64,000 bases of DNA. It comes from Candidatus Pacearchaeota archaeon. GTDB lineage: Archaea; Nanobdellota; Nanobdellia; UBA10117; JAFCGI01. Position 1 is the first letter of the stretch. Each line of letters opens with the position of its first letter. The DNA is taken from the NCBI GenBank assembly GCA_017608235.1, contig JAFCGI010000001.1, positions 1,423-65,422 on the forward strand. The letters run 5' to 3'. The notes under the pieces are model-generated. The model saw nothing but the letters and a program-made list of their open reading frames with translations. It was not told the DNA's origin and ran no database searches. Below, in pieces: positions 1,577-44,338 of this stretch. The position numbers were made by a program, and so were the translations under genes.

Positions 1577-3682
1577 TTATTGTTTAGATTTAATATACAT
1601 ATATGCACTAAATACTGCATTTACACCTTCTGCTACTGCAATTATAGCTTGTTTATATTGACAGCAAGTCACATCTCCTGCTGCATATATGCCTGGAATG
1701 TTTGTTTTAGAATTTTTATCTATATTTATTTCACCTTTTTCATTTAGCTTAACACCCAGATCCTTTACCAAATATGAAATTGGTACTGAGCCAACCTCAA
1801 TAAATAATCCTTCTAGAGGAAATTCTTTACTATTTTTGTAAGGATTATCAAGAATTACTTTGTTTATAAACTTATCACCTTTTATTTCTGTTATATTTGT
1901 ATTATTGATTATTTCTATCTTTTTGTTAGCTTTTACTCTCTTTGTATTTATTGGTTCTGCTCTTATTTTTTCTTTTCTATAAATTATATATACTTTTTTT
2001 GCATATTCGCTAAGAAGAAGTGCTTCTTTTGCTGCAGAATCTGAACCTCCGACTACTCCTACAATTTTATCCCTAAACAAAGGTCCATCGCAATTATGGA
2101 CAATAAAATTTTTGGCTATGTATGTGTTATTTTTATTAGTTGCAATATTCAATACCTTTCCAGAATATTTTACTTTTTTAATTTCTCTTATAGGCAGAAT
2201 TGCAAAATTATTGTGTATCCATGCGTGCTTTGCAATTTTTTTTCTTTTATTGATTTTGGGATGTTTAACGCCAAGAATCTTACTTAGTTTACCTAAGAAT
2301 TGTCCTCCAATACTTATATGATATTTGTTATGCTTGAAATATATCCTTCTTCCGTATATTTCATTTTCTTTTTTATTTAATGACTTTGTAATTCTAATCT
2401 GTAAAGAAGGTATAATTTTTTGTCTTAGCAGTAGATCTCTTAGCTGATAAGCAAGTTGTCTTGAACTGGTTGTGTAGCAAAAATCTTTTTCTCTAGTACA
2501 ACCATCACCTCGCCATAGGCCTTTAATTAATTCTTTTTGTTTGTTTACTGGTAAAATCATTATCCAATGCGGGATCTTTTTGGCGTGAGCATACTTTCCA
2601 AAAAATTTTCTAAAAAGATCTGCTATTGGCTTGGAATAGATAGTTATTTTACAAACATTATCTTGTTTTTCTATCTTTGGACTTAACTTAAATGTCTTTT
2701 TTAAAATAGCCTTAACATCTGCAATATATTTGGTTTCTTTCTTATTAAAAGAAAAACTTAACATGTGCTTATATGATGTGCCTTCTGCAACATAATATCC
2801 AATTAAATGCAGAAAATCGCTATCTACTTTAATTTCATTTGGGATAGAATTAGAAGTTTGTGTAGTTCTTTTAGGTTTAGCTAAACTATTTAAAACTTCT
2901 ACATCTACATAATCTGAAATTTTTATCTTATCAATATTTTTTACTTCTTTTATGATTGGATAAAGAACTGCTTCTTTAGTTGTTAATTCGTTTGCTTTAA
3001 TCCATTTTGGTTTAGTAAATTTAAAATTTTTCCAATAGTTTTTGCCTTGTCCTTTTTTAATATTTAAAGTAAGAACTGGGTGATTTGGAGTTAATTGTAC
3101 TGGTTCATTAAAAAATCTTGGCTTGATGCTTATTAGTTCTCCAAAGTAATCTCTTTTAGTAAAACCATCTATCTCTTGATATGTTCCGTCTATTGTTAGA
3201 ATTCTATCTAGAGGATTTATTTCTTTAATCTCTTTGATTGAACTATTTGATATTATAGACTCATTTGGCGGAAGACATGTTGCACAATAAGATACTCCTT
3301 TGTTAAAGAATTCTTTTTCTCCTGGAATGTTTAAATGCCGGACTTGAGTTCCTGTAGCAATTAATACTGTTTTAGCAAAGTATGATTCTTTATTCCTAGT
3401 TATTAACTCAAAATTATCTTGTTTTTTAACTAATTTAGAAACTTCATCTTGTTTAATCTCAACTTTATATTCTTTAACATGATCTACTAATTTATTTGTC
3501 AATTCTTGGCCTGAGATTTTTTTGAATCCTGGATAGTTTTCAACTAAGTGTGTTTTAGCAATCATACCACCAAGTTCTTTAGCTATTATTATTGTCTTAA
3601 GGGAGAATCTCGCTGCATAGATGGCTGCTGCTAGTCCTCCAGGACCTCCACCAATTATAACTAAATCATATTCTTCTGCCAT
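1577..3682 (-). CDS. trxB: Thioredoxin-disulfide reductase (TrxB) precursor. A 395-aa intein is inserted within the CATC active-site motif.
   Basis: The N-terminus has the Rossmann fold LVIIGGGPGGLAAAIYAARF and the sequence GVSYCAT. The C-terminus begins CDGPLFRDKIVGVVGGSDSAAKEA and continues to IYAAGDV. Joining them gives SYCAT+CDGPLF, the canonical TrxB CATCDGP redox motif. The 701 aa splits into a 135-aa N-extein, the intein, and a 171-aa C-extein. Confidence 0.9.
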   Translation of the reverse strand: MAEEYDLVIIGGGPGGLAAAIYAARFSLKTIIIAKELGGMIAKTHLVENYPGFKKISGQELTNKLVDHVKEYKVEIKQDEVSKLVKKQDNFELITRNKESYFAKTVLIATGTQVRHLNIPGEKEFFNKGVSYCATCLPPNESIISNSSIKEIKEINPLDRILTIDGTYQEIDGFTKRDYFGELISIKPRFFNEPVQLTPNHPVLTLNIKKGQGKNYWKNFKFTKPKWIKANELTTKEAVLYPIIKEVKNIDKIKISDYVDVEVLNSLAKPKRTTQTSNSIPNEIKVDSDFLHLIGYYVAEGTSYKHMLSFSFNKKETKYIADVKAILKKTFKLSPKIEKQDNVCKITIYSKPIADLFRKFFGKYAHAKKIPHWIMILPVNKQKELIKGLWRGDGCTREKDFCYTTSSRQLAYQLRDLLLRQKIIPSLQIRITKSLNKKENEIYGRRIYFKHNKYHISIGGQFLGKLSKILGVKHPKINKRKKIAKHAWIHNNFAILPIREIKKVKYSGKVLNIATNKNNTYIAKNFIVHNCDGPLFRDKIVGVVGGSDSAAKEALLLSEYAKKVYIIYRKEKIRAEPINTKRVKANKKIEIINNTNITEIKGDKFINKVILDNPYKNSKEFPLEGLFIEVGSVPISYLVKDLGVKLNEKGEINIDKNSKTNIPGIYAAGDVTCCQYKQAIIAVAEGVNAVFSAYMYIKSKQ
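2093..3277 (-). mobile_element. Class 1 intein with a LAGLIDADG homing-endonuclease domain, inserted in trxB between the Thr and the second Cys of the CxxC motif.
   Basis: Intein residue 1 is Cys (codon 3275..3277, with Thr and Ala codons upstream). Block B is TPNHPVLT. The two LAGLIDADG motifs are LIGYYVAEGTS and LIKGLWRGDGC. The C-terminal sequence IVHN is followed by the +1 Cys (codon 2090..2092). Codon boundaries were checked against the plus-strand sequence. Confidence 0.85.
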
Positions 3683-4773
3683 TACATTTTATTCCTTATT
3701 CTTTCTTTAGCGATTTCTAGTGCTGCTTGTCGTGGTGAAATGTTTTTTTCTTTTGATCTTTCTAAAACAAGCGCTGTATTTTTTGTTATTTTTTCTTCAA
3801 CCATTTTAAACATATCTTCTGGAGTCCCTCCAATAAACTCTATATATGAAGAAATTACTCCACCTGCATTTGCTACAAAATCTGGAACTACTAATATACC
3901 TTTTTTATGTAATTCTGTTTCTAGTTCTGGAGTCATTGGGATATTAGAACCAGAAACTATTGCTTTTGCTTTTATTTTGTTTTTATTTTCCTGATTGATT
4001 ACATCTGGAATTGCAGCAGGTATTAAAACATCTACATCTAATTCGAATAGTTTTTTATTTTCGATTACTTCTCCATCTTTGTAATTTACTACACTTCCAG
4101 TCTCTTGTTTAACTTTAAATAATTCTGGAATATTCAATCCTGCAGCATTATAGATACATCCTTTAGAATCTGATACTGCTACTATTTTTGCTTTATCTTT
4201 TGCAAGATATTCTGCTGCGAATGTTCCTACATTTCCAAATCCTTCGATTGCAACAGTTATTTTATCTACTTTTAGTTTTAGATGTTTAATTGCAACAATT
4301 GTTGAATGATATACTCCTATTCCTGTAGAACCTAATTCGTGTGGAATGCCTCCCATTTCTGAAGGCTTACCAGTACAAGATTGTATATCTCCATTTGCTT
4401 TTGCAAATATTTCCATTTCATGTTCTGCCATAGATATGTCTGGAGCAGCAACATACAATGATGGACAGATAGGCTTTATTGCTTTAGAAAATGCTTCTAC
4501 TATTTTATCTTTATCCTCCTGATTTATTTTTCCTGAGGATACTATTCCTGATTTAGCTCCTCCAAAAGGGAGGTCAGCAAGTGCACATTTCCATGCCATA
4601 GCTCTTGCTAATCTAAAAACTTCTTCTTTTGTTACATTTGAGGTCATTCTTATTCCGCCTTTTCCAGGTCCTAGTGCTGTATTGAATATTATAGTGAATC
4701 CATGCATTTTTGTTTTTGGATCATATACTTCTAAAATCTTTTCTGGTCCAAATTCATTAAATTCTATTTCCAT
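3682..4773 (-). CDS. Glu/Leu/Phe/Val dehydrogenase family NAD(P)-dependent amino-acid dehydrogenase (short form, 363 aa)
   Basis: It has the GPGKGGIRM catalytic lysine loop, the GGAKSG motif, and the GFGNVG Rossmann fold. Its start overlaps the trxB start by 1 nt. Confidence 0.8.
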   Translation of the reverse strand: MEIEFNEFGPEKILEVYDPKTKMHGFTIIFNTALGPGKGGIRMTSNVTKEEVFRLARAMAWKCALADLPFGGAKSGIVSSGKINQEDKDKIVEAFSKAIKPICPSLYVAAPDISMAEHEMEIFAKANGDIQSCTGKPSEMGGIPHELGSTGIGVYHSTIVAIKHLKLKVDKITVAIEGFGNVGTFAAEYLAKDKAKIVAVSDSKGCIYNAAGLNIPELFKVKQETGSVVNYKDGEVIENKKLFELDVDVLIPAAIPDVINQENKNKIKAKAIVSGSNIPMTPELETELHKKGILVVPDFVANAGGVISSYIEFIGGTPEDMFKMVEEKITKNTALVLERSKEKNISPRQAALEIAKERIRNKM

Positions 4774-5457: not shown

Positions 5458-6147
5458 TTAAGTTCTTAATTCACAAATATCAAAATATGGTTTTAATAAT
5501 TTTATAAATTGTCTAAGTTCTTCTTCTGTGTATGCGCTTTCACTTCTATATTCTGGATTTAGTGTTTTAATTGATCTGAATTGCTGTAAATAGTATGCTT
5601 TTGATCCTTTAATCCATTCTGCAATAGATAATAAATCTTGTTTGGTTATTAGTTTTGGCAAAATTGTTGTTCTGAATTCATAATCTTTGCTTGAGTTTCG
5701 TATTATATCTATTGTTTTTTGTATATTTTCTACTTGAACTTTTGTGTTTGCTACTAAATCATATTTTTCTGGTGGTGCTTTTATGTCCATTGCTATATAA
5801 TCTACTAGATTTTCAGTTATCATAGTTTGAATTACCTTTGGATTTGTTCCATTTGTATCTAACTTAACTAAAAAACCCAGATCTTTGAGTTTGAATGCAA
5901 AATCTGTAAGATCTTTTTGAAGAGTTGGTTCTCCACCTGTGATGCAAACACCATCAATTAATTTTTTTCTTGAAATAAGATGGTTAAAAATTTCTTCTTC
6001 ATTAATTTTTTGTAGATCTCTATGATTTATTAATTCAGGATTATGGCAATAATGACATCTAAAATTACAATCTACTGTAAATATTACAGAAGCTATCTTT
6101 TTTGGATAGTCTATTAGAGATGTTTTTTGCCATCCCTTTATTATCAT
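5458..6147 (-). CDS. nrdG: Anaerobic ribonucleotide reductase activating protein (radical SAM)
   Basis: It has the radical-SAM motif CNFRCHYCHNPE and GVCITGGEPTLQ. It overlaps nrdD by 4 nt. Confidence 0.85.
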   Translation of the reverse strand: MIIKGWQKTSLIDYPKKIASVIFTVDCNFRCHYCHNPELINHRDLQKINEEEIFNHLISRKKLIDGVCITGGEPTLQKDLTDFAFKLKDLGFLVKLDTNGTNPKVIQTMITENLVDYIAMDIKAPPEKYDLVANTKVQVENIQKTIDIIRNSSKDYEFRTTILPKLITKQDLLSIAEWIKGSKAYYLQQFRSIKTLNPEYRSESAYTEEELRQFIKLLKPYFDICELRT

Positions 6148-8456
6148 TTTACACCAGAATATGCTATAAGCGTATTTGTTGCTGGCTTCTCTATAACCTT
6201 GTACTTATCTTTAATATTAATTGCTTTTACCTGACTATATGGTTTTCTGTCTTTGAATTCTTCCTTTTTCCCTTTATTCCAGCTTTTAACAGGTCTTAGA
6301 TAACCTACAACCCGGCTATAAATTTCTGTTTCTTCACCACAAGTAGGGCAGCTTTCTTTTTCTCCTCTAATATAGCCATGATTTTTACATACAGAGAATG
6401 TAGGAGTTATTGTATAATATGGTAATTTAAAGTTATATGCTATTTTTTTAACTAATTGCTTGCATGTTTCTGCATCTGTGATTCTTTCACCTAAAAAACC
6501 ATGCAATACTGTTCCACCAGTATATTTACATTGTAATTCATCTTGGTGTTCTAATGCTTCAAATATATCATCTGTATATCCTACTGGCAATAATGATGAA
6601 TTTGTATAATATGGTTCAACATCACCAGCAGTGATTATGTCTGGATATCTTGCTATGTCCATTCTTGCAAATCTATAGCTAGTACCTTCTGCAGGGGTTG
6701 CTTCTAAATTATAGATATTTTTTGTTTCCTCCTGAAAATTAGATATTTTATTTCTCATAAAACCTAGTACTTCCAAAGCAAACTGTCTACCATCTTTAGT
6801 AGATATGTCTTTTCCTAAAAAGTTTAGACAAGCTTCATTCATTCCGTTTATACCTATAGTAGAAAAATGATGGTTAAAGGTTCCGAGATATCGTTTTGTG
6901 AATGGGAGTAATCCATTATCTAGGTTTTTTGTTATTATTTTTCTTTTTACTTCTAATGATTCCTTAGCTATTTCCATAAAAAATGTTAATCTTTCAAAGA
7001 ATTCTTCTTTAGTCTCAGATAGATATCCAATTCTTGGAAGATTTATGGTTACTACTCCAATACTTCCTGTTGATTCTCCAGATCCAAATAGGCCACCTGT
7101 TTTTTTTCTTAATTCTCTTAAGTCTAATTGCAATCTGCAACACATAGATCTTACATCTGTTGGCTTAAGATCTGAATTTATAAAATTCTGGAAGTATGGA
7201 ATTCCATATTTTGCAGTCATCTCAAATAATAGATTTGAATTTTCTGAATCCCAATCAAATTCTCTTGTAACATTATATGTTGGAATTGGGAATGTAAATA
7301 ATCTACCTGAAGCATCTCCTTCTATCATGGTTTCTATGAATGCTTTATTTATCATGTCCATTTCTTTTTGACAGTCACCATATGTAAAGCTCTGTGTTTT
7401 TTTTCCAATGGTTGCTTTTTGATTTGCCATATCACTTGGAACTGTCCAATCAAAAGTTAAATTTAAGAATGGTGTTTGAGTTCCCCACCTACTTGGTGTT
7501 GCTATATTAAATAAGAATCTTTGCATTTGTTGTTTAACTTGCTTATAGGTTAGATTATCTTTTTTAATATATGGTGCTAAATATGTATCAAAAGATGATA
7601 GTGCTTGCGCTCCAGCCCATTCATTTTGCAGGGTTCCAATAAAATTAACTATTTGACCTACAATTGTATCTAAGTGTTTAGCTGGAGCGGTTTGTAGTTT
7701 TCCATAAATTCCGCCAAATCCTTCTGTAATTAGCTGTCTTAGACTCCAGCCAGCACAGTATCCAGAAAACATTGATAGATCATGAATATGTATATCTCCA
7801 TTTCTATGTGCTTGTGAAATTTTTTGAGAATATAGGTTTAACCAATAATTTGCAGTTATTTTTCCTGAAATGTAAAGAATTAATCCTCCAATTGAGAAAT
7901 CTACATTACTATTTTCATTAACTCTCCAGTCACTTCTTTGTAGATATTCTCCCATTATTTCGTCTATATCTACAAAAGTTTTTTCAAATTCTCTAACTCT
8001 TTTACGTTTTTCCCTGTATAGAATGAATGCTTTAGCTACTTGTGCATGTCCTTGTTCGATTAGAACTTTTTCAATAGCATCCTGAATTTGCTCTACATTA
8101 GGAACTTGTGTATTACTTGTCTCAAGTACCTCTACTACATTATTTGTGATTTCTTCTGCTTTTTTCTTGTCTTTTCCGCCTACAGCTTTTACAGCTTTGA
8201 AAATTGCAGCATATACTCTTTCTTTATCAAATAGAGCAATAGTTCCATCTCTTTTTCTGATTTGTTGTATTTTCAAGGGATGTTTTTCTTTGCTTAAATG
8301 TTCATATGTGGTGAATCTTTTATTACAACTTAAACACTCTCTTCTACGGCGTGAAGAACTTTGATTTTCTCTCTTATCTATAACTTTGGTTTTTTCTGAG
8401 GAACAAAATGGACATTTCATTTTTAGAGCACCCTTTCTATTTAGGTAAGTATACAC
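6144..8456 (-). CDS. nrdD: Anaerobic ribonucleoside-triphosphate reductase class III with an N-terminal ATP-cone
   Basis: It has an N-terminal Zn ribbon CPFCSS..CLSC and an ATP-cone (IRKRDGTIALFDKERVYAAIFKAV). The C-terminal glycyl-radical region is CPTCGEETEIYSRVVGYLRPV. Confidence 0.9.
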   Translation of the reverse strand: MYTYLNRKGALKMKCPFCSSEKTKVIDKRENQSSSRRRRECLSCNKRFTTYEHLSKEKHPLKIQQIRKRDGTIALFDKERVYAAIFKAVKAVGGKDKKKAEEITNNVVEVLETSNTQVPNVEQIQDAIEKVLIEQGHAQVAKAFILYREKRKRVREFEKTFVDIDEIMGEYLQRSDWRVNENSNVDFSIGGLILYISGKITANYWLNLYSQKISQAHRNGDIHIHDLSMFSGYCAGWSLRQLITEGFGGIYGKLQTAPAKHLDTIVGQIVNFIGTLQNEWAGAQALSSFDTYLAPYIKKDNLTYKQVKQQMQRFLFNIATPSRWGTQTPFLNLTFDWTVPSDMANQKATIGKKTQSFTYGDCQKEMDMINKAFIETMIEGDASGRLFTFPIPTYNVTREFDWDSENSNLLFEMTAKYGIPYFQNFINSDLKPTDVRSMCCRLQLDLRELRKKTGGLFGSGESTGSIGVVTINLPRIGYLSETKEEFFERLTFFMEIAKESLEVKRKIITKNLDNGLLPFTKRYLGTFNHHFSTIGINGMNEACLNFLGKDISTKDGRQFALEVLGFMRNKISNFQEETKNIYNLEATPAEGTSYRFARMDIARYPDIITAGDVEPYYTNSSLLPVGYTDDIFEALEHQDELQCKYTGGTVLHGFLGERITDAETCKQLVKKIAYNFKLPYYTITPTFSVCKNHGYIRGEKESCPTCGEETEIYSRVVGYLRPVKSWNKGKKEEFKDRKPYSQVKAINIKDKYKVIEKPATNTLIAYSGVK

Positions 8457-13742: not shown

Positions 13743-16244
13743 GTGGCTATAAGAGCAAATATTGAAAATAAGGAAAAAATTTGCTTTTTTCCTTTAGATA
13801 TTGATTACGAGACTTTAAAGTCTGGTGAGGCTCAGATAAGAATATTTGGAGTAACTCGCGATAAGAAAAGGATTGCTGTTTTAGACAAAAAAGCATTACC
13901 TTATTTCTTAATTATGCCTAAGAAAGGAACCAATATTGATTATTTTCTTAAAAAATTAAAAACATTAGAAGTTAGAAGCGAAGCTAAATTAATTAAGATA
14001 AAAAATGTTATAATTGAAAGTAGGAATTATTTAGGAGAAAAAGTTTCTATAATCAAAGTATTTGTAAGCCATCCTTCACATATAAAATTGATAAGGAAGG
14101 TTGTACAAGATTTTAAGGAAGTTGAAGATACAAAAGAATTTGATATTAATTTTTATAAAAGATATTTATTGGATAGGGAAGTTGTTCCTTGTGTTTTTTG
14201 TTGTGTTGAAGGTAAAATTGTTAATAGGCAAGATTTAGATGTTGATATAGTTGTTGAGGCTAGTAAGATTAAGCAATATAGCCAGGATCTTGTATCTGAT
14301 CTTAAAATATTAGCTTTTGATATTGAAACTTTGTTCAAGGGTGCAGCTTCTAATGCTAAACATGATGCAATAATTATGTGTTCTTTTTATGGTAGGGGTT
14401 TAAAGAAAGTAATAACTTGGAAGAAATATAAAGATGCTCCATATTATATGAAGTTTGTTGATGGTGAGCTTGAATTAATTGAGGAATTTAAAAAAATAAT
14501 AAAAGAATATAAGCCAGATATTTTAGTAAGTTATAATGGGGACCAATTTGATCTTCCATATATTAGAGAACGCGCTGAAAAATATAAAATTAAATTAGAT
14601 CTTGGATTAGATTTCTCTGAAATAGATCTAAGAAGGAAAGGAATAGCCAGTGCTGCTAAGATAAAAGGTGTGGTGCATTTAGATATGTATGTGTTTATAC
14701 ATAATATTCTTAGAGAGAATCTTGATACTGAAAGGTATGACTTAGATTCTGTTTCTGCTGAGATTCTAGGATTAGATGCTAGAAAAAGATATTTTGATTT
14801 TAGAAAACTTAATGAGATTTGGAGTATCGGGCTGAAAGAAGATTTAGAAAATTTATCTGCATATAATTTAAGAGATTCTGAACTAACATATAAAATTTGT
14901 GAAAAAATACTCCCTACAGAATTGCAATTAGTTAAGCTAATTAGTTTGCCTTTATTTGACATAAATAGGCTAACATATGGTCAGCTTGTAGAATGGTTTT
15001 TGATGAATAATGCAAGTAAGACTGGTAAAATATCTCCCAACAGGCCTTGGTTAGAAATAATTAGAAAACGAAGAAAACATACATTTGAAGGTGGGTTTGT
15101 TAAGGAACCTAAACCTGGTTTTTATAAAAATATTTTTGTATTTGATTTTAGGAGCTTATATCCTAGTATTATAGCTTCACATAATATTGGCTTGGAATCT
15201 TTTAATTGTGAATGCTGTCAATATAAAGGTGGCTATAATCTAGAAGATAATAAAATTTGGTTTTGTTCAAAGAAAGAAGGATTTATTCCTGGATTGGTTA
15301 AGAGTATTATTGAGCGTAGAAGAAGAGTCAAGAGCATTTTAAATAAGACTAGTAAGTCTGATCCTTCATATGCAGTTTTAAATTCCAGACAATATAGCTT
15401 GAAAATATTAGCAAATTCTTTTTATGGTTATTTGGGATTTCCTGCGTCAAGATGGTATTCTTTAGACTGTGCTAGAGCAGTTACTTGGTTTGGGAGAAAA
15501 TATATACAAGAAGTAATAAAAGAGGCTGAGAAATTTGGTTTTAATGTGCTTTATGGTGATACTGATTCTATATTTTTGTTATTGGGAAATAAAAAAAAGA
15601 AAAATATTCCTGAGTTTTTGAAAATAATTAATTCTATATTACCTAGTCCTATGGAATTAGAATATCAAGGATTTTATTCTTCTGGAATCTTTATTGGAAA
15701 AAAAGGTGATAGAATTGGTGCCAAAAAAAGATATGCTCTTTTAGCAGAGGATGGAGATATTATTTTAAGAGGTGTTGAAGCCATAAGAGGGGATTGGTCT
15801 AAAATAGCAAAGGATACTCAGAGGCAAATTATTGAAATGGTGTTAAAAGATGGGGAGGCAAAAAGAGCTATAAAATATTTGCAAATGGTGATTAATAAAA
15901 TAGATAAACGAGATGTTAGTTTGGATGATCTTTCTATTAAAACTAAATTAACTAAAAATCTTAGCGAGTATAAATCTAGAGGACCACATGTTGCTGCCGC
16001 AAGCATAGCAAAAGATAAAGGTTATGATGTATTTGCAGGATTTGTTGTTGATTATATTGTGGGAGAAGGTGATGGAAAGATAGGTGACAAAGTTATACTT
16101 ACTGAAGATGCTGGTATTGAAGACTATGATAAAGAATATTATATAAATAATCAAATAATAAGATCTGTGTATAAGATCTTAGAAATTTTTGGATATACAG
16201 AAGAAAAACTTAAAGAAGGACAAACTACACTAAGTTCATGGTAA
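13743..16244 (+). CDS. polB: Family B DNA polymerase (PolB)
   Basis: Exo I is LAFDIETL and Exo II is YNGDQFDLPYI. Pol motif B is KILANSFYGYLG and motif C is VLYGDTDS. There is no intein. The apparent start is a GTG. Confidence 0.95.
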   Translation: MAIRANIENKEKICFFPLDIDYETLKSGEAQIRIFGVTRDKKRIAVLDKKALPYFLIMPKKGTNIDYFLKKLKTLEVRSEAKLIKIKNVIIESRNYLGEKVSIIKVFVSHPSHIKLIRKVVQDFKEVEDTKEFDINFYKRYLLDREVVPCVFCCVEGKIVNRQDLDVDIVVEASKIKQYSQDLVSDLKILAFDIETLFKGAASNAKHDAIIMCSFYGRGLKKVITWKKYKDAPYYMKFVDGELELIEEFKKIIKEYKPDILVSYNGDQFDLPYIRERAEKYKIKLDLGLDFSEIDLRRKGIASAAKIKGVVHLDMYVFIHNILRENLDTERYDLDSVSAEILGLDARKRYFDFRKLNEIWSIGLKEDLENLSAYNLRDSELTYKICEKILPTELQLVKLISLPLFDINRLTYGQLVEWFLMNNASKTGKISPNRPWLEIIRKRRKHTFEGGFVKEPKPGFYKNIFVFDFRSLYPSIIASHNIGLESFNCECCQYKGGYNLEDNKIWFCSKKEGFIPGLVKSIIERRRRVKSILNKTSKSDPSYAVLNSRQYSLKILANSFYGYLGFPASRWYSLDCARAVTWFGRKYIQEVIKEAEKFGFNVLYGDTDSIFLLLGNKKKKNIPEFLKIINSILPSPMELEYQGFYSSGIFIGKKGDRIGAKKRYALLAEDGDIILRGVEAIRGDWSKIAKDTQRQIIEMVLKDGEAKRAIKYLQMVINKIDKRDVSLDDLSIKTKLTKNLSEYKSRGPHVAAASIAKDKGYDVFAGFVVDYIVGEGDGKIGDKVILTEDAGIEDYDKEYYINNQIIRSVYKILEIFGYTEEKLKEGQTTLSSW

Positions 16245-17143: not shown

Positions 17144-19438
17144 TTAACCCATATATTCTGGTATATTTGTATGTGAGCCTTTTGCAGCTTGCATTGCTTT
17201 AGCATATCTTATGAGATCTTGTTTGCTAAGCGATGGTTTAATATTCTCTAAAGCCTCTTCAAAATTTTTCTTTGTAACTTCTTTTGAATTTATGTTATCT
17301 CTCAAAGCCATCATTGCTGCTTCCCTACATACTGCTTCTATGTCTGCTCCAGAATAATTTTCTGTTTTCTTAGCTAAATATTTTAGAGTTATTGACTTTG
17401 CTAAAGGCATTTCTTTTGTGTGTACTTTTAATATCTCTAATCTTGATTCTTCATTTGGAGGGATAGCCATTATATGCCTATCTAATCTTCCAGGACGCAA
17501 TAATGCTGGATCTACTAGTTCTGGACGGTTAGTTGCTGCAATTACTACTACATCATTTAATTCTTCTAAACCATCCATTTCTGTTAGTATTTGATTTACT
17601 ACTTTTTCTGTAACATTGCTTCCTGTATCTTGCCCCCTTGTTGATGCTATAGAATCTAGCTCATCAAAGAAAATTATTGCTGGTGATACTTGCCTTGCTT
17701 TTTTGAATATTTCTCTGATTGCTTTTTCTGATTCTCCAACCCATTTGCTAAAGATCTCTGGTCCTTTGACGTTGATGAAGTTTGCTTCTGATTCTGTAGC
17801 TACTGCTTTAGCTAGCAAAGTCTTACCACAGCCAGGAGGGCCATATAGTAAGATACCTCGAGGAGGTCTTATTCCCATTCTTTTGAATATTTCTGGTTTT
17901 TTAAGTGGCCATTCAACTGCTTCTATTAATTCTTGTTTTGGTTTATCCAAGCCGCCGATGTCTTGCCATTTAATTTTTGGTTTTTCAATTAATACTTCTC
18001 TCATTGCAGATGGTCTTACTAGCTTTAGTCCTTCTTTGAAATCTTGTTTTTTTACTTCTAATCTCTTTAGAATATCTTCTGATACTCTTTCTTCTTTTTC
18101 CTTATCTAGTTTAAATAAAGGCAAAACTCTTCTAAGTACACTCATTGCTGCTTCCTTAGTTAAACCTTCTATATCTGCACCTACAAAACCATGAGTGACT
18201 TCTGCTAATTCTTTTAGATTTACATCTTTAGCTATTGGCATATTTCTAGTATGGATTTTTAGAATTTCTAATCTAGATTTTTTATTTGGTACACCTATCT
18301 CAATTTCTCTATCGAATCTTCCACCACGTCTTAGAGCAGGATCTAATGCATTTTGTCTATTTGTGGCAGCGATTACTATTACTTTTCCACGAGATTTTAA
18401 GCCATCCATTAGTGCGAGCAGTTGAGCTACTACTCTTCTTTCTACTTCTCCATAAGATTCTTCCCTTTTTGGAGCAATTGCATCAATTTCATCAATGAAA
18501 ATTATTGATGGTGAAGTGTGTTCTGCTTCTTCAAAGATTTCTCTAAGTTTTTTTTCTGCTTCTCCAACAAACTTACTCATGATTTCTGGTCCGTTTAATA
18601 GAATAAAATTAGCGTTAGATTCTGTGGCTACTGCCTTTGCTAAAAGGGTTTTACCTGTTCCTGGTGGGCCAAATAGTAAAACTCCTTTCGGAGGTTGTAC
18701 ACCAAGTCTATCAAATATCTCTGGATGTTTTAATGGTATTTCAATCATTTCTCTGATTTTTTTGATTTCTTCATCTAATCCGCCAATATCTTCATAAGTT
18801 ACATCTGGAATTCTTTCTTCTTTTAGTTCAACTGCTTCTGATCTTACATCAATTCTTGTATCTTCTGTTATTAGTACAGCTTCTTTCGGATTTGTGGATA
18901 CAACTACAAATTTAATATCTGAAAATCCTAGTCCTGAGAATCCCATATCTTCTGACATCATATTAAATATCTCTTCAAATGGACTTCCAGAAAAAGTTCT
19001 TTGTCTTCTTCTAGCTCCGCCAAGAGATATTACATCACCTTTTACTATTGCTCTTCCTAGTAATGCTCTCTGAAATGTTGATGGATGAGCCTGAACCATT
19101 AAACCTTTTTGTGCTGGAGCAATTGTTATTGTTTTAGCAGGTTTAACTTCTGCTTTTTTTATTTTTATAAATTCACCAATACTTGTTTTAGCATTTCTTC
19201 TTGTAAGACCATCCATCCTGATAATAGATAATCCTACATCTGCTGGAAATGCACGGTCAACAATAGCTACTGTTTTTCTTTCACCTTCTATTTCTACAAT
19301 AGAACCAGCTTGAATTCCAACTTTTTTCATTAACTGAGAATCAATTCTAACAATTCCTTTGTTAACATCATCTTGAGCTGCTTCTGCAACTTTTAATCTT
19401 ATTTCTTTTGATTCTTTTTCTTTCATGAGTCTCACCAT
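17144..19438 (-). CDS. cdc48: CDC48/VCP-like AAA+ ATPase (double AAA domain)
   Basis: It has a Cdc48 N-domain and two Walker A motifs (GPPGTGKT and GPPGCGKT). Two SRH/arginine-finger regions are present. Confidence 0.95.
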
Positions 19439-21945: not shown

Positions 21946-24060
21946 TCAAGTACCTGCTTTCTGGTCTTGTTTTTGTTCTTTATTGTTAGTATCTTCTTTC
22001 TTATTGTAATCTTCTTTTTTAGATGGGCAATTTGGATTGGGGCAAAATTGCCAAGGTCGTCTTTTGAAGGTATAGATTGCAATTAATGGGGTTTTGCAGT
22101 GTTTACATAATTTTTTTCTTAAAATTGAGAGTTTTCCTTTTTGCGGAAGAGGCCATGTGGTTTTGCATTTAGGATAATTATCGCAAGCTAGGAAGCGCTT
22201 CCCAGATTTCTTACTTATGATTATACGGATGTTTCCTTCTTTGCAGGCATGGCATTTTTTTAGAAAAGATTCTTGCTTTCTTGTTTCATATACTGCTTGT
22301 GCAAGTTCTTTACCTATTTGTGATTTATTCTCTGCAAATTTTTCTAGATTCTTTATTAATACTTTTTTAGCGCTATCCAAGACTTTTTCTTTTTTTAGTT
22401 TTCCTTCTCTAATTTTTTCCATATCTTTTTCAAATAAAGCTGTTAAATCTTCAGATAGAATCTTTGGAATGTATTTCTTGAATGTTTTTACTATTTCCAA
22501 ACCAAGTTTGGTTACTTGTATTGATGTGTCTCGGATGTATCCTCTTTGATATAATGTATCTAAAATTTGGGATCTTGTAGCTTTTGTTCCAAGATTATGT
22601 TTTTCTAGTTCCTTAATTATTGACGCTTGAGTATACCTTTTCGGAGGAAGAGTTTCTTTTTGGTCTATCTGAGATTTTTGATTAAATATTTGATTTATTT
22701 CCAATACTGGAAGTTCGGTTTCTTCTTTTGCTGAATAGGGTTCATAAATTTCCTGCCAACCTTTTTCTAAGGTCCTTGTGCCTTTAAGAATAAATTTTTC
22801 TTTTTCTATGTCAAAGATTGCTTTTGTGGTTTCTCTTAGGCCTGGGATTGAGAAAACAGATAAGAATCTCTTTACTATTAGATCATAAAGTTTTCTTTGA
22901 TCAGCTTCTATCTTCTTTGGAACTTCTCCAGTAGGATATATTGATGGGTGAGCAGGATCTTTTTTCTTGCCTTCGTTAGGTTTAAGTTTTGTTTTAAGAA
23001 TTTTAGATGCAGATTCTTTATATGCCGGATTTAATGCTAGATTTGAGACTATTTTCTTTATGTTAATAGATTTAGGAATTTTTTGAGATGAGGTTCTTGG
23101 ATAAGATATTAAGCTAGCTTCATAAAGTGCTTGCGCTAATTGTAATGTTGATTTTGGACTGATTTTAAGACAACGATATGATTCTATTTGTAAAGTAGTT
23201 AGGTCAAAAGGAACTGGAACACTTACTTTTTGTTTTGTTTTCTTTACTTCCAGAATTTTTGCATTCTTATCTTTAATTTTTTCAAAAATTTTGTTGGATT
23301 CTTTTTCTTCAAAGAATTTTTCTTTTTCATGAATTGCTTGGAATTTTTTATTATTGATATCTAAATTAATAAATATCTGCCAATAAGGTTCTGGTTTGAA
23401 AGCTTGTATTAATAATTCTCTTTCTGATAGAATTTCTAATGTAGGGCCTTGTACTCTTCCTATACTTAACGGATTAAATCTATGAGTGACTAAATAGAGG
23501 GCATCTGTTGCTGCCTTGCTAAGATTAATTCCATAATAAAAATCTAGATAATGTCTAGTTAGTCCTGCTTCTGCCTGACCCCAATTAAGTGTAGAACTTA
23601 TATTTTTATATGATTCTTTGAGATCTTCTTTTGTAAGTGTAGAGAATTTCATTCTTTTTGCATCTTTTTGTTTACAAATAAATCTTAGAATATTAAGTCC
23701 TATAACTTCACCTTCAGCATCATAATCTGTTGCTACTATGTATTCTGAGGCTTCTTTAGTAATTTTTTTGATTAGATTAAAATATGGTTTTGAAAAAGCT
23801 GCAGTTTTGTTAACTTCATATGTAGGTTTCCATTCTATATCAAAAACAGGATATTTGAATGATTTTTCTTTTTCTGAGAGTGTAAAAAGATGTCCTACTG
23901 CGGGAACTACTATTATTTTCTTAGAATTATGTTTTACTTCATAATATGATACTTTACCTGCTTTTTTTTGAACTGCATCTCCAAGAGCAGACGCTATCTT
24001 AGCTGATGCGTTTGGTTTTTCTGCAATTATTAGTTCATAACCCATGTAGATCTGAAACAT
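21946..24060 (-). CDS. topA: DNA topoisomerase I (type IA) with C-terminal Zn-ribbons
   Basis: It has a Toprim domain (LIIAEKP, TDYDAEGE), the catalytic Tyr region ISYPRTSS, and C-terminal C4 fingers (CHACK..., CDNYPKC, CKHCK, CPNPNC). Confidence 0.9.
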   Translation of the reverse strand: MFQIYMGYELIIAEKPNASAKIASALGDAVQKKAGKVSYYEVKHNSKKIIVVPAVGHLFTLSEKEKSFKYPVFDIEWKPTYEVNKTAAFSKPYFNLIKKITKEASEYIVATDYDAEGEVIGLNILRFICKQKDAKRMKFSTLTKEDLKESYKNISSTLNWGQAEAGLTRHYLDFYYGINLSKAATDALYLVTHRFNPLSIGRVQGPTLEILSERELLIQAFKPEPYWQIFINLDINNKKFQAIHEKEKFFEEKESNKIFEKIKDKNAKILEVKKTKQKVSVPVPFDLTTLQIESYRCLKISPKSTLQLAQALYEASLISYPRTSSQKIPKSINIKKIVSNLALNPAYKESASKILKTKLKPNEGKKKDPAHPSIYPTGEVPKKIEADQRKLYDLIVKRFLSVFSIPGLRETTKAIFDIEKEKFILKGTRTLEKGWQEIYEPYSAKEETELPVLEINQIFNQKSQIDQKETLPPKRYTQASIIKELEKHNLGTKATRSQILDTLYQRGYIRDTSIQVTKLGLEIVKTFKKYIPKILSEDLTALFEKDMEKIREGKLKKEKVLDSAKKVLIKNLEKFAENKSQIGKELAQAVYETRKQESFLKKCHACKEGNIRIIISKKSGKRFLACDNYPKCKTTWPLPQKGKLSILRKKLCKHCKTPLIAIYTFKRRPWQFCPNPNCPSKKEDYNKKEDTNNKEQKQDQKAGT

Positions 24061-31427: not shown

Positions 31428-33287
31428 TTAGTGTGAATTATTAATTTTGAATTTCTCAAATATTAATTGTTTTTTATTTCCTATAAATGCATGTTCTATA
31501 ACATCTTTTATATTCTTGACTGGAATTATTTTGATTTTTGATTCTGCTTCTTTTGATAGTACAATATCTTTCTCATTAGAATATGGAATAATTATTTCTT
31601 CTATTCCTGCTTCTATTGCTGCTTCTATTTTAGGAGTAACTCCACCAACAGGCAAGACTTCTCCTCTTACAGATAAGGAGCCTGTCATTGCTAGATTCTG
31701 TTTTATTTCTATATCTTTTAATGCTGAAAGGATTGCTACTGCAACTGCTATAGATGCTGAGTCTCCTTCTACTCCTTCCCCAACTGTTTGTAAAAATTGT
31801 ACATAAAGATCACGGGTTTCTTTTATGTCTTCGCCAAAATATTTCATGATTATTGCTGAAACATTTTCTACTGCTTCTTTTGCTATTTCTCCTAACTTGC
31901 CTGTTGCAACTATTTCTGTTTTCTTACCTCCAGTTGTTACTTCTGCTTCTATAGGCAAGACAATTCCAGAATAAGCTCCTTGTCCTCCAATAACTGCTAA
32001 ACCATTAACCCTACCAACTTCAAATCCTTTTGTTCTAATTACTTCATATTCTTTTTTCTTTTCAATGTATTTATCTGCTATTTGTTGCTCTAATGGACGT
32101 GCTATTTTTTTTGCTCTGAGAATATGATCTGCTTCTACAAATTTAGCTTTTTCTTCTAAAGCTAGATCTCCTGCAGCTCTTACTAATCCTCCAAGATCCC
32201 TTAATACTAGAGTTAAGTGTCCTTTTCTGTTGCTACGTCTTCTTGCTTCTTTGATTATTTCTAAAACTGCTTCCCTTGTAAAGTGAGGTATTTTTTCATC
32301 TTTAGTTACTTCTTGTGCAATAAATCTTGCTATTCTTTCTTGATTTTCTGGAGTATCTGGGATTGTATCATTCATGAATATTTCATATCCATATCCCCTA
32401 ATTCTAGATCTTAGTGCAGGGTGCATTCTTTCTACGGTTTCAAGATTTCCTGCTGCAATTAATACAAATTTACATGGGACTGGTTCTGTTCTAACCATTG
32501 CTCCTGCAGATTTTTCTGATTGTCCTGTTATTGGATATTTTCCTTCTTGTAATGCTGTAAGAAGATCTTGCTGAGTTTTTGGATCTAAAGTTGCTACTTC
32601 ATCAATAAATAGGACTCCACCATTTGCTTTATGAATCATACCAGCTTCCACTCTTAGATGTGCTGGAGTTCCTAGTCCTCCAGATTGGAATGGATCATGT
32701 AATACATCTCCTAATAATGCACCAGCATGAGATCCAGTAGCATCAATAAAAGGACTTTTTTCTAGTCTTGAAGTATCTACAATAAGTTTCGGTTCTAGTA
32801 TTTTTGATTTTCTTCCAACAACATTAAAAGATAGTGCCATTGCTGCAAGAAATAACATTCCAGAAATTAGTGAGGCTGCAGCCATAATATCTCCATATGA
32901 TTTTCTTATCCACCATGGAAGTATTAAGGCTATTACTGCTAATATGAAAAAGAATATTTGTTGATTTTTTAGACTTGTTGCTGCTTTTAACTTTGCTTGC
33001 TGGACTAGACTTGTACCTTTACCTGTAGAAAATACTTTAATTCTTGGATGATTTTCATCCTTAAGATTTGGTATTGATAGTATATCTACTAGTTTGCTTT
33101 TAGGAAGTAATTCTGCTAGTGCTTGTCCAAGCATAGACTTTCCAGTTCCTGGATCTCCAATTAATAATATGTGTCTTTTTTGTGCTGCAGCTTTTTTTAT
33201 GATCTTAGCTGCTTCGTCCTGTCCAATTACTTGATTTATTATTTTTTCAGGAACTTTTATTTCTTTTGTAGTTTTAAAATCTAGCAT
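31428..33287 (-). CDS. lonB: Archaeal membrane-bound Lon protease (LonB)
   Basis: It has an AAA+ Walker A (GDPGTGKS), inserted TM helices, and a C-terminal Lon protease domain with the catalytic Ser in [15 protein letters not shown]. Confidence 0.9.
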
Positions 33288-40818: not shown

Positions 40819-40882
40819 TTGAGTTAATTTGTTTTATTAGTTATAATAGTTTTTAAAAAAAGAATAATTTTAAGAGGGTGTG

Positions 40883-43800
40883 ATGGCTGATCTTATTTGT
40901 AGTCCTAAGATAAGGAAGTATTTTGATTCTATTACTAAGGAAGTAAATAATCTTTATGAGGTTGCTAGAAAAGCCAGGCTTAAAGGCTATGATCCTGAAC
41001 CAGAGCCGGAAGTGTTCTTAGCAGAGAATGTTGCAGAAAGGGTTGTAGGATTAATAGCGACTGCAGCACCACAGATTCGGAATAAAGGAGTTGCAGAGAG
41101 AATAACTGAATTGGAGAATGAATATGGAGTAGGAGATTGGAGGATTGCACTTAGAATAGCAGAGGAGGTTGCCTCTGAAAAATTTTGTAAGTTTAAAGAT
41201 CTTACAGAGCAGATATCAATAGGATCTAAATTAGGATTAGCATATGTTACTAATGGGGTTGTTTCGTCTCCTTTGGAAGGAATGGCATCATTTCAACTTA
41301 AAAAAAGAAAAGATGGTAAAGATTATTTAGCGGTTTATTATGCAGGACCTATAAGAAGTGCAGGAGGTACTGCTGCAGCTGTTTCTGTATTAATAGCAGA
41401 TTATGTTAGAAGAAAATTAGGAGTTAGTGATTATGATATTACAGATGATGAGGTTAAAAGATATCAGGTAGAGATAGATGATTATGTTTCTAAAATAGCT
41501 CATAGACAGTATGTTCCAACACCAGAAGAAATTGAATTATTAGTAAGAGGTATAAAAATAGAGATTAGTGGAGATCCAACAGAGAAATATGAGGTTTCTC
41601 GTTTTAAAAGATTGGATAGAGTAGAGACGTCAATGATTAGGGGAGGAATGTGTTTGGTTTTAACTGAAGGTCCATCTTTAAAGTGTTTTAAGTTATGGAA
41701 ACAATTACAAAATTGGAAGGATGATTTTGGTTTAGATGATTGGGTTTGGCTTAAAGATTTTATTAAGCTTAGGGAGAGGATGCATTCTTCAGAACAGGAA
41801 AATAAAAAAGATGATAAAGAAAAAGAAGAAATAAAAATAAAAACAAATGATAGTTATTTAAAAGATATTGTCGCTGGCAGGCCTGTTTTTGGATATCCGA
41901 TGGCTTCAGGCGCATTTAGACTTAGATATGGCAGGACAAGAATTTCTGGGTATGGTTCGATGTGTTTGCAACCTGCTACCATGAGAGTTCTAAAGAATTA
42001 TTTGGCTACAGGCAGTCAATTGAAATTAGAAAGACCTGGTAAGGCTACTGCATTATCTGTTTGTGATAGTATTGATGGACCTGTTGTAAAATTGGAAGAT
42101 GGATCTGTTGTTAGGATAAATTCTGAAGAGGATTTTGATAAACTTGATCAAGGAATAGATGAGATATTATATTTAGGAGATATTTTGATAAGTTATGGAG
42201 AGTTTGCAGAAAATGGAGAAAGATTGCCTCCAGCAGGATATTGTGAAGAGTGGTGGAAACTTGAATTAGAAAAGCATACTAAAGATGTTCCAGATAAAGT
42301 TGATTTTAAGAAAGCTGTAGAGTTATCTAAAAAATATAAAATTCCATTGCATCCAGATTTTATTTATTTTTGGAAGGAGATTTCTAAAGAACAGTTTAGT
42401 TTGTTATTTGGCTGGCTTAAGAAAGCAGATTTTAAAAATAAAGAAGCTATACTTTCAATAGATTTTGATGCAAAGCGAGCATTAGAACTTATTGCTTGTC
42501 CACATTCTGTTAGAGATGATATAATAATTATTGATCAAGTTAATACACTGGCATTATTTTATCAATTAGGTTTAATAGATATAGATTATAAAAAATTAGA
42601 TGCTAATTTTACATATAGTGAATCTAGTTTAGATATTGTAAATAAATTATCTCCTATAGAGATAAGAGATAAGTCTGGAACTTTTATTGGATCAAGAATG
42701 GGTCGTCCTGAGAAAGCTAAGTTAAGAAAGCTTGCTGGAAGTCCACATGGTTTTTTTCCGGTTGGGAAACAAGGTGGAAGATTAAGATGTTTTCAGAGTG
42801 CATTAGAAGAAGGATATATTAAGGCAGAGTTTCCAATTTTCTTTTGTGATAATTGTAATAAAGAAACTGTTTTTTCTGTGTGTGAAACTTGCGATTTTAA
42901 GACAGAACAATTGAAAATTTGTTCTGTATGTAAGAAGAAAACAAGAGAAGATGAATGTCATGCTAAAGAAACAGTTCCATATCAAACTAAGAAAATAGAT
43001 ATTAAACATTATCTTTCTGCAGTTAGATCTAAAATTAAATTAGAACATGTACCCTCACTCATAAAAGGAGTTAGAGGAACATGGAATAAAGACCATACTT
43101 TAGAACATTTATCTAAAGCATTATTGAGAGCGAAACATAAATTGTTTGTTAATAAAGATGGAACTGTAAGATATGATATGACAGAGATGGGTATAACCCA
43201 TTTTACTCCAGAAGAAGTTGGAACTTCAATTAAGAAATTGAAAGAGCTTGGTTATGATAAAGACATAAATGGTAAAGATATAGTAAAAGAAGATCAAATT
43301 ATAGAACTTAAACCCCAAGACATGGTATTGCCTGCTTGTCCTGAATCTGAAGAAGAAGGAGCAGAAGAGATTTTATATAGAATAGCAAATTTTGTGGATG
43401 ATCTCTTAGTAAATCTTTATGGTTGTGAACCTTATTATGATCTAAAATCTAAAGAAGATTTAAGAGGGCAATTAGTTGTGGGACTAGCGCCCCATACTTC
43501 TGCAGGTATTGTTGGAAGGATTGTGGGTTTTTCAAAGACGCAAGGTTGTTTTGCACAACCATATATGCATGATGCTATGAGAAGAGATTTAGATGGTGAT
43601 GAGACTGCAGTTATGTTAGCATTAGATTTGTTTTTGAATTTTTCTAAGAGATTTTTGCCAAGTAGCAGGGGAGCAACGCAGGATGCACCATTAGTATTAA
43701 CAGTGTTATTGAATCCTGGAGAGATTGATGATGAGGTTTATGATGTTGATATTGTGTTTAAATATCCATTAGAATTATATGAAGCTGCTTTAGAAGCAAA

Positions 43801-44338
43801 GTTTCCACATGAGATTAAAATAGAACAAATCAAACATAGGCTTGGTAAACCAGAACAGTATGAGGGATTTGGATTTACTCATTCTGTGAGTAATATGAAT
43901 ATTGGACCAAGACTATCTGCATATAAAACAATTCCAGCGATGTTAGATAAGGTTGAGGGTCAGATAGAATTAGCTAGGAAGATTAGAGCATCTGATTTAG
44001 AAAAAGTTGCAACTTTAGTTATAGAAAGACATTTTTTAAGAGATATTAAAGGAAATCTAAGAAAGTTTACTATGCAAGGTTTTAGATGTGTGAGGTGTAA
44101 TGCTAAATATAGAAGACAACCTTTGTGTGGAGAGTGTACTGTTTGTGGAGGTAATATTGTATTTACTATTGCAGAAGGTACTGTAATTAAGTATTTAGAT
44201 GTTAGTTTAAAGCTAGCTAAGTATGGAAATGTAAATAGTTATTTAAAGCAGTGTCTTTCTTTACTAGAAAATAGAATAGAATCTGTGTTTGGTAAAGATA
44301 AAACAAAACAAATTGAGTTAGAGAGTTTCTTCAATTGA
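40883..44338 (+). CDS. polC: DNA polymerase II (PolD) large subunit DP2
   Basis: The N-terminus MADLICSPKIRKYFD is typical of DP2. Length is about 1150 aa. Zn-finger Cys clusters (CDNCNK...CETC, CVRCN...CGEC..C) are present. There is no intein. I set the start at the ATG at 40883. Confidence 0.95.
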   Translation: MADLICSPKIRKYFDSITKEVNNLYEVARKARLKGYDPEPEPEVFLAENVAERVVGLIATAAPQIRNKGVAERITELENEYGVGDWRIALRIAEEVASEKFCKFKDLTEQISIGSKLGLAYVTNGVVSSPLEGMASFQLKKRKDGKDYLAVYYAGPIRSAGGTAAAVSVLIADYVRRKLGVSDYDITDDEVKRYQVEIDDYVSKIAHRQYVPTPEEIELLVRGIKIEISGDPTEKYEVSRFKRLDRVETSMIRGGMCLVLTEGPSLKCFKLWKQLQNWKDDFGLDDWVWLKDFIKLRERMHSSEQENKKDDKEKEEIKIKTNDSYLKDIVAGRPVFGYPMASGAFRLRYGRTRISGYGSMCLQPATMRVLKNYLATGSQLKLERPGKATALSVCDSIDGPVVKLEDGSVVRINSEEDFDKLDQGIDEILYLGDILISYGEFAENGERLPPAGYCEEWWKLELEKHTKDVPDKVDFKKAVELSKKYKIPLHPDFIYFWKEISKEQFSLLFGWLKKADFKNKEAILSIDFDAKRALELIACPHSVRDDIIIIDQVNTLALFYQLGLIDIDYKKLDANFTYSESSLDIVNKLSPIEIRDKSGTFIGSRMGRPEKAKLRKLAGSPHGFFPVGKQGGRLRCFQSALEEGYIKAEFPIFFCDNCNKETVFSVCETCDFKTEQLKICSVCKKKTREDECHAKETVPYQTKKIDIKHYLSAVRSKIKLEHVPSLIKGVRGTWNKDHTLEHLSKALLRAKHKLFVNKDGTVRYDMTEMGITHFTPEEVGTSIKKLKELGYDKDINGKDIVKEDQIIELKPQDMVLPACPESEEEGAEEILYRIANFVDDLLVNLYGCEPYYDLKSKEDLRGQLVVGLAPHTSAGIVGRIVGFSKTQGCFAQPYMHDAMRRDLDGDETAVMLALDLFLNFSKRFLPSSRGATQDAPLVLTVLLNPGEIDDEVYDVDIVFKYPLELYEAALEAKFPHEIKIEQIKHRLGKPEQYEGFGFTHSVSNMNIGPRLSAYKTIPAMLDKVEGQIELARKIRASDLEKVATLVIERHFLRDIKGNLRKFTMQGFRCVRCNAKYRRQPLCGECTVCGGNIVFTIAEGTVIKYLDVSLKLAKYGNVNSYLKQCLSLLENRIESVFGKDKTKQIELESFFN

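Follow-up and report, generated by a model that had tools for sequence, protein, structure and literature searches.

A predicted LAGLIDADG intein between the two redox cysteines of a thioredoxin reductase from a Candidatus Pacearchaeota archaeon

The analyzed stretch of 64,000 nucleotides, hereafter the window, belongs to a Candidatus Pacearchaeota archaeon (NCBI GenBank assembly GCA_017608235.1, contig JAFCGI010000001.1, positions 1,423 to 65,422 of the forward strand) and contains on its minus strand a thioredoxin reductase gene, trxB, which is interrupted in frame by a putative intein. The open reading frame (ORF) of the precursor extends over positions 1577..3682 and comprises 701 amino acids (aa) plus the stop codon at 1577-1579; the 701-codon frame is unbroken despite the GC content of 29.5%, and its ATG overlaps the stop codon of the upstream gdh gene by 1 nt (TAATG, window 3680..3684). 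All parts described in the following lie on the same minus strand. The N-extein (aa 1-135, 3278..3682) features the FAD-binding motif GGGPGG and ends with SYC(133)AT, Cys133 (Cys-3) being encoded at 3284-3286. It is followed by an insert of 395 aa (precursor aa 136-530, 2093..3277), in which a HINT splicing domain is split by a LAGLIDADG endonuclease domain. Splicing block A, CLPPNESIISNS, is located at 3242..3277 and includes Cys1 (codon 3275-3277), and block B, LTPNHPVL, at 3071..3094 carries the TxxH motif formed by the intein residues T63 and H66. The two LAGLIDADG motifs occupy 2774..2815 (FLHLIGYYVAEGTS; FLHLIGYYVAE165G, acidic residue E165) and 2495..2536 (KELIKGLWRGDGCT; KELIKGLWRGD258G, acidic residue D258), and the insert is closed by blocks F and G (YSGKVLNIATNKNNTYIAKN, then FIVHN; 2093..2167) with the penultimate His394 and the terminal Asn395. 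The C-extein (aa 531-701, 1580..2092) starts with Cys+1 in CDGPLF, i.e., with Cys531 (codon 2090-2092), the second redox cysteine of TrxB, and contains the dinucleotide-binding motif GGSDSA. With a slash at each splice junction, the precursor reads GVSYC(133)AT / C(136)LPPNES ... NFIVHN(530) / C(531)DGPLF, and Cys133 and Cys1 together constitute the sequence C-A-T-C1 (C133-A-T-C136) in the precursor.

Removal of the insert in silico results in a protein of 306 aa which reads SYCATCDGPLF at the join. This spliced product aligns with solved thioredoxin reductases (TrxRs) in one ungapped stretch across CATCDGP, with TrxB-3 of S. solfataricus as best match (3f8p, E 3e-71); its CATC, which arises only on excision, is aligned with the CSVC of 3f8p. 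The profile TIGR01292 matches the product in a single stretch over profile positions 1-300 with 344.0 bits, barely over the equivalog cut-off of 343.45 bits. The precursor, at 324.2 bits (E 5e-97), remains below this cut-off and is matched in two stretches, aa 2-136 and 530-697, corresponding to profile positions of about 1-135 and 133-300. With the precursor under the threshold and the spliced form over it, genes for intein-bearing TrxB are therefore mis-named in databases, where the carriers appear generically as 'FAD-dependent oxidoreductase' or 'intein/homing endonuclease'. In the dinucleotide region the window TrxB reads GGSDSA ... YRKEKIR; the NADPH specificity motif of the E. coli TrxR is GGGxSA ... 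HRRxxxR. The precursor itself must be inactive as a reductase, since its catalytic thiols are kept apart by the intein, which also interrupts the pyridine-nucleotide domain. An earlier note on this DNA had placed a LAGLIDADG intein between the two redox cysteines of TrxB and expected a contiguous enzyme after removal of aa 136-530, with the second redox cysteine serving as Cys+1. Motifs, excision, profile hidden Markov models (HMMs) and fold bear out the first of these statements, with coordinates that proved exact and a strand that the note had left unstated; the ungapped alignment to 3f8p and the TIGR01292 score confirm the second, and the junction C531-DGPLF the third. The note's view that the endonuclease motifs are intact likewise agrees with the presence of E165, D258 and the motif glycines.

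The endonuclease profile PF14528 (LAGLIDADG_3) matches the insert with 46.1 bits at a cut-off of 22.5. Across 33 aligned related inteins, C1, T63, H66, H394, and N395 are invariant, and Cys+1 as well as E165 and D258 are conserved in at least 90% of this clade. An AlphaFold2 (AF2) model of the intein built on the 33 homologues reached a predicted local distance difference test score (pLDDT) of 94.4 and a predicted template modeling score (pTM) of 0.92, and its top PDB matches in Foldseek were all endonuclease-bearing inteins, with the TliVMA intein 7qsu ranking best (E 6.5e-23, template modeling score (TM) 0.69) and PI-PkoII, PhoVMA, PI-SceI, and PI-PfuI as further matches. The endonuclease domain of the model additionally matches the structures of I-DmoI and I-Tsp061I. 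Searches by sequence led to the VMA inteins 7qss/7qsu and to PI-PkoII, with E 1e-8 for the endonuclease region. These structurally solved inteins of archaea and yeast, some of them VMA-type (7qsu/7qss, PhoVMA 7qst, PI-PkoII 2cw7, PI-SceI 1vde, PI-PfuI 1dq3) feature the same architecture of a HINT domain with a two-motif LAGLIDADG endonuclease (Foldseek E 6.5e-23 to 1.7e-13, TM 0.55-0.69), but differ from the window intein by their hosts and insertion sites and share only 11-18% sequence identity with it. The insert is not a chance pattern. Very probably, it is a true class-1 intein (Cys1/Cys+1) in trxB that contains a homing endonuclease with two LAGLIDADG motifs and would undergo canonical splicing and probably homing.

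The element is not restricted to the window. In a scan of one genome per GTDB species, homologous inteins at the same TrxB position were detected in 17 carriers (loci L001-L015, L018, and L051, the last one at a contig edge). A protein search with the insert returned about 14 TrxB-like clusters with an intein at the same position and 40-60% identity, originating from MAGs (metagenome-assembled genomes) of Aenigm-, Woese-, and Pacearchaeota and from TARA data. The carriers comprise Woese-, Pace-, Aenigmat-, and Nanoarchaeota as well as two organisms labelled Patescibacteria, and they share the junction pattern C-x-x/C[LQ]xP...VHN/CD[GAS]. The TrxB inteins form a group of their own with 40-65% identity, the copy closest to that of the window (65% identity) being found in a Woesearchaeota MAG. 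An intein domain is absent from all 120 proteins most similar to the spliced TrxB (56-67% identity, 280-395 aa, same phyla). The inteins of L009 and L013 are 54% identical, compared with 35% for their exteins, and the respective values for the window and L009 are 54 and 42%; furthermore, the catalytic residues of the endonuclease are kept in eight of the nine full-length TrxB inteins. Because the distribution is sporadic, the intein is better conserved than the exteins and the catalytic residues are retained, the pattern is typical of an element that spreads, or at least once spread, by homing. Metagenomes contain the exact 23-nt empty site, as reconstituted from the sequences on both sides of the insertion, in intein-free trxB with six matches (L070-L075, around TATTGTGCAACA / TGCGATGGACC).

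Some of the alleles deviate from this picture. In the protein P0008, the second LAGLIDADG acidic residue is changed from D to H (RGHGC). The allele L018 2578..4534 (Pacearchaeota JACPXY010000054.1) lacks about 48 aa and is frameshifted inside the endonuclease domain, which points either to decay of the allele, by which trxB would be inactivated, or to an error in the assembly; the database protein P0013 of the same allele begins within the intein. In P0014 (ENA contig, 415 aa), the N-terminal half of a TrxB intein runs into sequence of the LAGLIDADG_1 (PF00961) type, for which replacement of the endonuclease, nesting of another element or a chimeric contig could account. The two MAGs labelled as members of the candidate phyla radiation (CPR) with the same TrxB intein are L011 (labelled Saccharibacteria) and L013 (Patescibacteria UBA1400). 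On the basis of these putative CPR labels, the TrxB intein may cross domains; the flanking genes of both carriers include no domain-diagnostic genes within reach. In L013, a thioredoxin gene is located immediately upstream of trxB. The earlier note had suggested a new insertion site. This holds insofar as a natural TrxB intein was not found in papers, reviews or intein surveys by full-text literature search, and TrxB is not known to be an InBase host. Nevertheless, the allele already exists in public sequence data of 17 GTDB species. The site is thus apparently unpublished, with the allele itself already present, unannotated, in public genomes.

According to the canonical pathway of class-1 inteins, from which the splicing steps are inferred, the 701-aa precursor would be translated first, and Cys136 (Cys1) would then perform the N-S acyl shift, aided by the Thr and His of block B. 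Cys531 (Cys+1) would attack the resulting thioester in a transesterification, cyclization of Asn530 would release the intein, and an S-N shift would restore a normal Thr-Cys peptide bond and give the 306-aa TrxB. The C133-A-T-C136 disulfide center of the mature enzyme would hence come into being only upon splicing, with the intein inserted between Thr135 and Cys136 of the mature CATC center. As judged from sequence, the freed intein is probably a site-specific endonuclease whose substrates are trxB alleles without an intein, and a cut at the highly conserved TGY-GCN-NNN/TGY-GAY-GSN would allow its spread by homing. The CxxC position can be explained by the fact that homing endonucleases target invariant active-site codons and that a Cys+1 intein needs a conserved cysteine.

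For the arrangement of cysteines at the N-terminal junction, known systems offer a comparison. A disulfide between Cys-3 and Cys1 blocks step 1 of splicing until it is reduced, both in the engineered CPGC variants of the Ssp and Npu DnaE inteins and natively in Pyrococcus abyssi (Pab) MoaA (PMC3922620, PMC10663303, PMC10772547). Like the window TrxB intein, these traps are class-1 inteins with Cys1 and an N-extein cysteine at -3, i.e., C-x-x-C1. They differ in that the -3 and +1 cysteines of the window TrxB are the catalytic dithiol of the host protein, which is itself the disulfide reductase of the cell. The likeness is one of junction geometry; compared with DnaE CPGC, the intervening dipeptide is A-T instead of P-G. 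Furthermore, cysteine oxidation reversibly pauses splicing of the Mycobacterium tuberculosis (Mtu) SufB intein and of M. smegmatis DnaBi1 (PMC6195587, PMC8891592); these are precedents for the oxidation-paused splicing of an essential protein, but their hosts are different and DnaBi1 belongs to another intein class. In the Pab PolII intein, a Cys1-Cys+1 disulfide prevents splicing (PMC3922620). This intein resembles that of the window TrxB in having Cys1 and Cys+1 nucleophiles which are able to pair, whereas it is without an extein CxxC partner and resides in a replication protein. Since the TrxB precursor keeps Cys(-3)-x-x-Cys1, oxidation can probably trap it reversibly by analogy to MoaA and the CPGC redox traps. 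Such trapping is regarded as a chemical by-product in the reducing cytoplasm of an anaerobe and not as a demonstrated regulatory device.

Beyond the TrxB group, sister inteins with 28-36% identity over the full 395 aa occur in DPANN archaea, Nitrososphaerota, and Patescibacteria. They feature the same blocks including the same Asn in block F and end with VHN/C, but differ from the TrxB inteins in host genes and target sites. Hosts are IscU/NifU (junction GNPx/C..HN/CGD), the beta subunit of 2-oxoacid:ferredoxin oxidoreductase (OFOR/PFOR-beta; W-C-P-G/C..HN/CGDF), SufB (YIEG/C..HN/C[ST]AP), and NuoB (TAC/C..HN/CSVE), along with RadA, a PHP-domain protein and a GT4 glycosyltransferase. Several of these inteins are situated at cluster- or redox-ligand cysteines. 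The C-P-G-C1 of the OFOR-beta junction is the exact motif that was engineered as a redox trap. It is represented by L022 3001..4098 in the complete genome of Ca. Nitrosotenuis chungbukensis MY2 (NZ_CP130341.1) and also by L020, L023-L031, L038, and L044, and this junction may be a more useful lead for experimentalists than TrxB.

Several points have to be held against a canonical intein with an active endonuclease in the window. The splicing profile PF14890 (Intein_splicing) matches the insert with only 28.2 bits (E 1.9e-6) and hence under its cut-off of 35.8, which the closest homologue, L001, clears with 43.3 bits, and the NCBIfam matches are confined to models of intein-containing hosts, all far under their cut-offs. 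Position 4 of block F (2108..2167) is Asn377 (GKVLNIA) in place of the usual Asp, a frequent but not strictly defining feature of the intein family; Asn is found here in at least 90% of this intein clade, while one TrxB allele (P0012/L015) has the Asp. The metagenome scan for the 23-nt site did not recover an intein-less allele of the same species, all six matches being from other organisms with flanks of about 70% nucleotide identity, and, given the decay of the endonuclease in some alleles, activity of the window endonuclease is not guaranteed. The first points would be in line with a dead gene, i.e., a precursor unable to splice and a trxB that is a pseudogene. This explanation is barely credible. 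The frame of 701 codons is uninterrupted in DNA of low GC content, all nucleophiles and the residues of blocks B and G are intact, and the exteins are conserved at equivalog level. The Asn in block F is common to dozens of intact inteins in essential genes. The remaining points lead to another explanation, by which splicing is intact and the window endonuclease inactive, so that the intein would be an immobile passenger which persists since its imprecise loss destroys TrxB. The D to H exchange in P0008, the deletion and frameshift in L018 and the missing same-species empty allele speak for it, as does the IMG/VR scan, in which no copy of the TrxB intein was found on viral contigs. However, the window copy has kept its two catalytic acidic residues and the motif glycines, as have eight of nine full TrxB inteins, the endonuclease domain is modeled at high confidence with a match to I-DmoI, and the higher conservation of the intein compared with the exteins indicates at least past horizontal transfer. 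Accordingly, we consider the immobile passenger rather unlikely.

A further set of explanations accepts the intein and concerns the question of whether its splicing is gated by redox state. A disulfide between Cys133 and Cys1 could act as a physiological switch by blocking splicing step 1 until it is released by reduced thioredoxin or other thiols; the maturation of TrxB would then depend on the very thiol redox state that TrxB controls, in a self-referential positive feedback. In favor of this, C-x-x-C1 is present in all 17 TrxB alleles, the trap is proven for engineered CPGC and native Pab MoaA (PMC3922620, PMC10663303, PMC10772547), related inteins are located at other redox or Fe-S cysteines (OFOR-beta W-C-P-G/C1, NuoB A-C/C1, IscU, SufB), and trxB is found in one gene string with nrdD, nrdG, a ferredoxin gene and DUF1858. 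Nevertheless, the -3 cysteine is obligatory in TrxB anyway, and its presence is therefore no sign of selection for gating. The dipeptides at -2/-1 follow the same pattern in intein-bearing (AL 8, AT 5, others 4) and intein-free alleles (AL 70, AT 29, AV 10 and so on), which likewise gives no sign of adaptation. Moreover, the upstream cysteine is missing at most sister sites (IscU, SufB, RadA, PHP, GT4, and ribonucleotide reductase (RNR)), more than 99% of close TrxB homologues are without an intein, and stopping the production of TrxR under oxidative stress looks counter-productive. A physiological switch of this kind is hence improbable. The earlier note had proposed another version, in which a disulfide of Cys+1 with its partner cysteine, three residues away, blocks the transesterification. 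The distance given is valid only after splicing, since Cys133 and Cys531 are 398 residues apart in the precursor, and the obvious disulfide of the precursor is that between Cys-3 and Cys1, the locally favored CxxC partner of Cys133, which would block the N-S acyl shift as step 1. In intein active sites, the two splice junctions are indeed juxtaposed. For the Pab PolII intein, pairing of Cys1 with Cys+1 in a disulfide has been described to prevent splicing (PMC3922620). Still, a block of transesterification by a Cys133/Cys531 or Cys1/Cys+1 disulfide, although sterically conceivable, appears very improbable. It is also highly doubtful that the active site of the host provides a natural redox trap in the wider sense, with C133 bonded to C136 or with C531 drawn into a three-way exchange, maturation only in the presence of reduced thiols (e.g., reduced thioredoxin made via mature TrxR), and perhaps the same logic for those sister inteins that are placed at Fe-S or redox cysteines. 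If this were true, the supply of TrxR would be bistable or feedback-controlled, and an enzyme that sets the redox state would control its own maturation; if it also applied to the sister inteins, a clade of inteins would gate redox and Fe-S metabolism in DPANN archaea, Nitrososphaerota, and Patescibacteria.

The TrxB intein amounts to a canonical element in a new location. The concept of the redox trap is already known, and nothing observed here marks the TrxB intein, a candidate for a natural trap, as more than a selfish intein. Inteins usually cluster in replication and repair proteins. Unlike these, the intein described here (allele 'TrxB-a') has its site in a core redox enzyme and adds an apparently unpublished host and site to the intein repertoire. 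Its precursor corresponds to the engineered CPGC redox trap in a natural, ready-made form. In combination with the OFOR-beta inteins, it offers laboratories working on conditional splicing cheap and well-defined constructs for asking if an extein CxxC gates splicing in nature.

The window as a whole is archaeal, encoding both subunits of PolD (DP1 and DP2), PolB, CDC48, and LonB at the GC content mentioned above, and its host is an uncultured, low-GC archaeon of the DPANN type. On the minus strand, trxB is the last gene of a string which reads, from 5' to 3', nrdD, nrdG, DUF1858, 4Fe-4S ferredoxin, gdh, and trxB. This order hints at a link of the thioredoxin system with the class III RNR, as far as gene neighborhood can indicate it. 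A second intein was not found in the 64-kb window. The classic host genes PolB (13743..16244), CDC48 (17144..19438), topoisomerase I (TopA; 21946..24060), LonB (31428..33287), and PolD-DP2 (40880..44338) are intein-free and, like NrdD, uninterrupted. Rfam and tRNA scans of the window gave no matches. NrdD (6144..8456, minus strand) features an N-terminal NrdR-type zinc ribbon (PF22811) and an ATP-cone, i.e., an NrdR-like regulatory module fused to the enzyme, and is followed by nrdG at 5458..6147. Besides, a ThyX ORF at 52850..54496 on the plus strand encodes 548 aa with two Thy1 (PF02511) stretches, about twice the usual length, which suggests a tandem-duplicated or fused ThyX.

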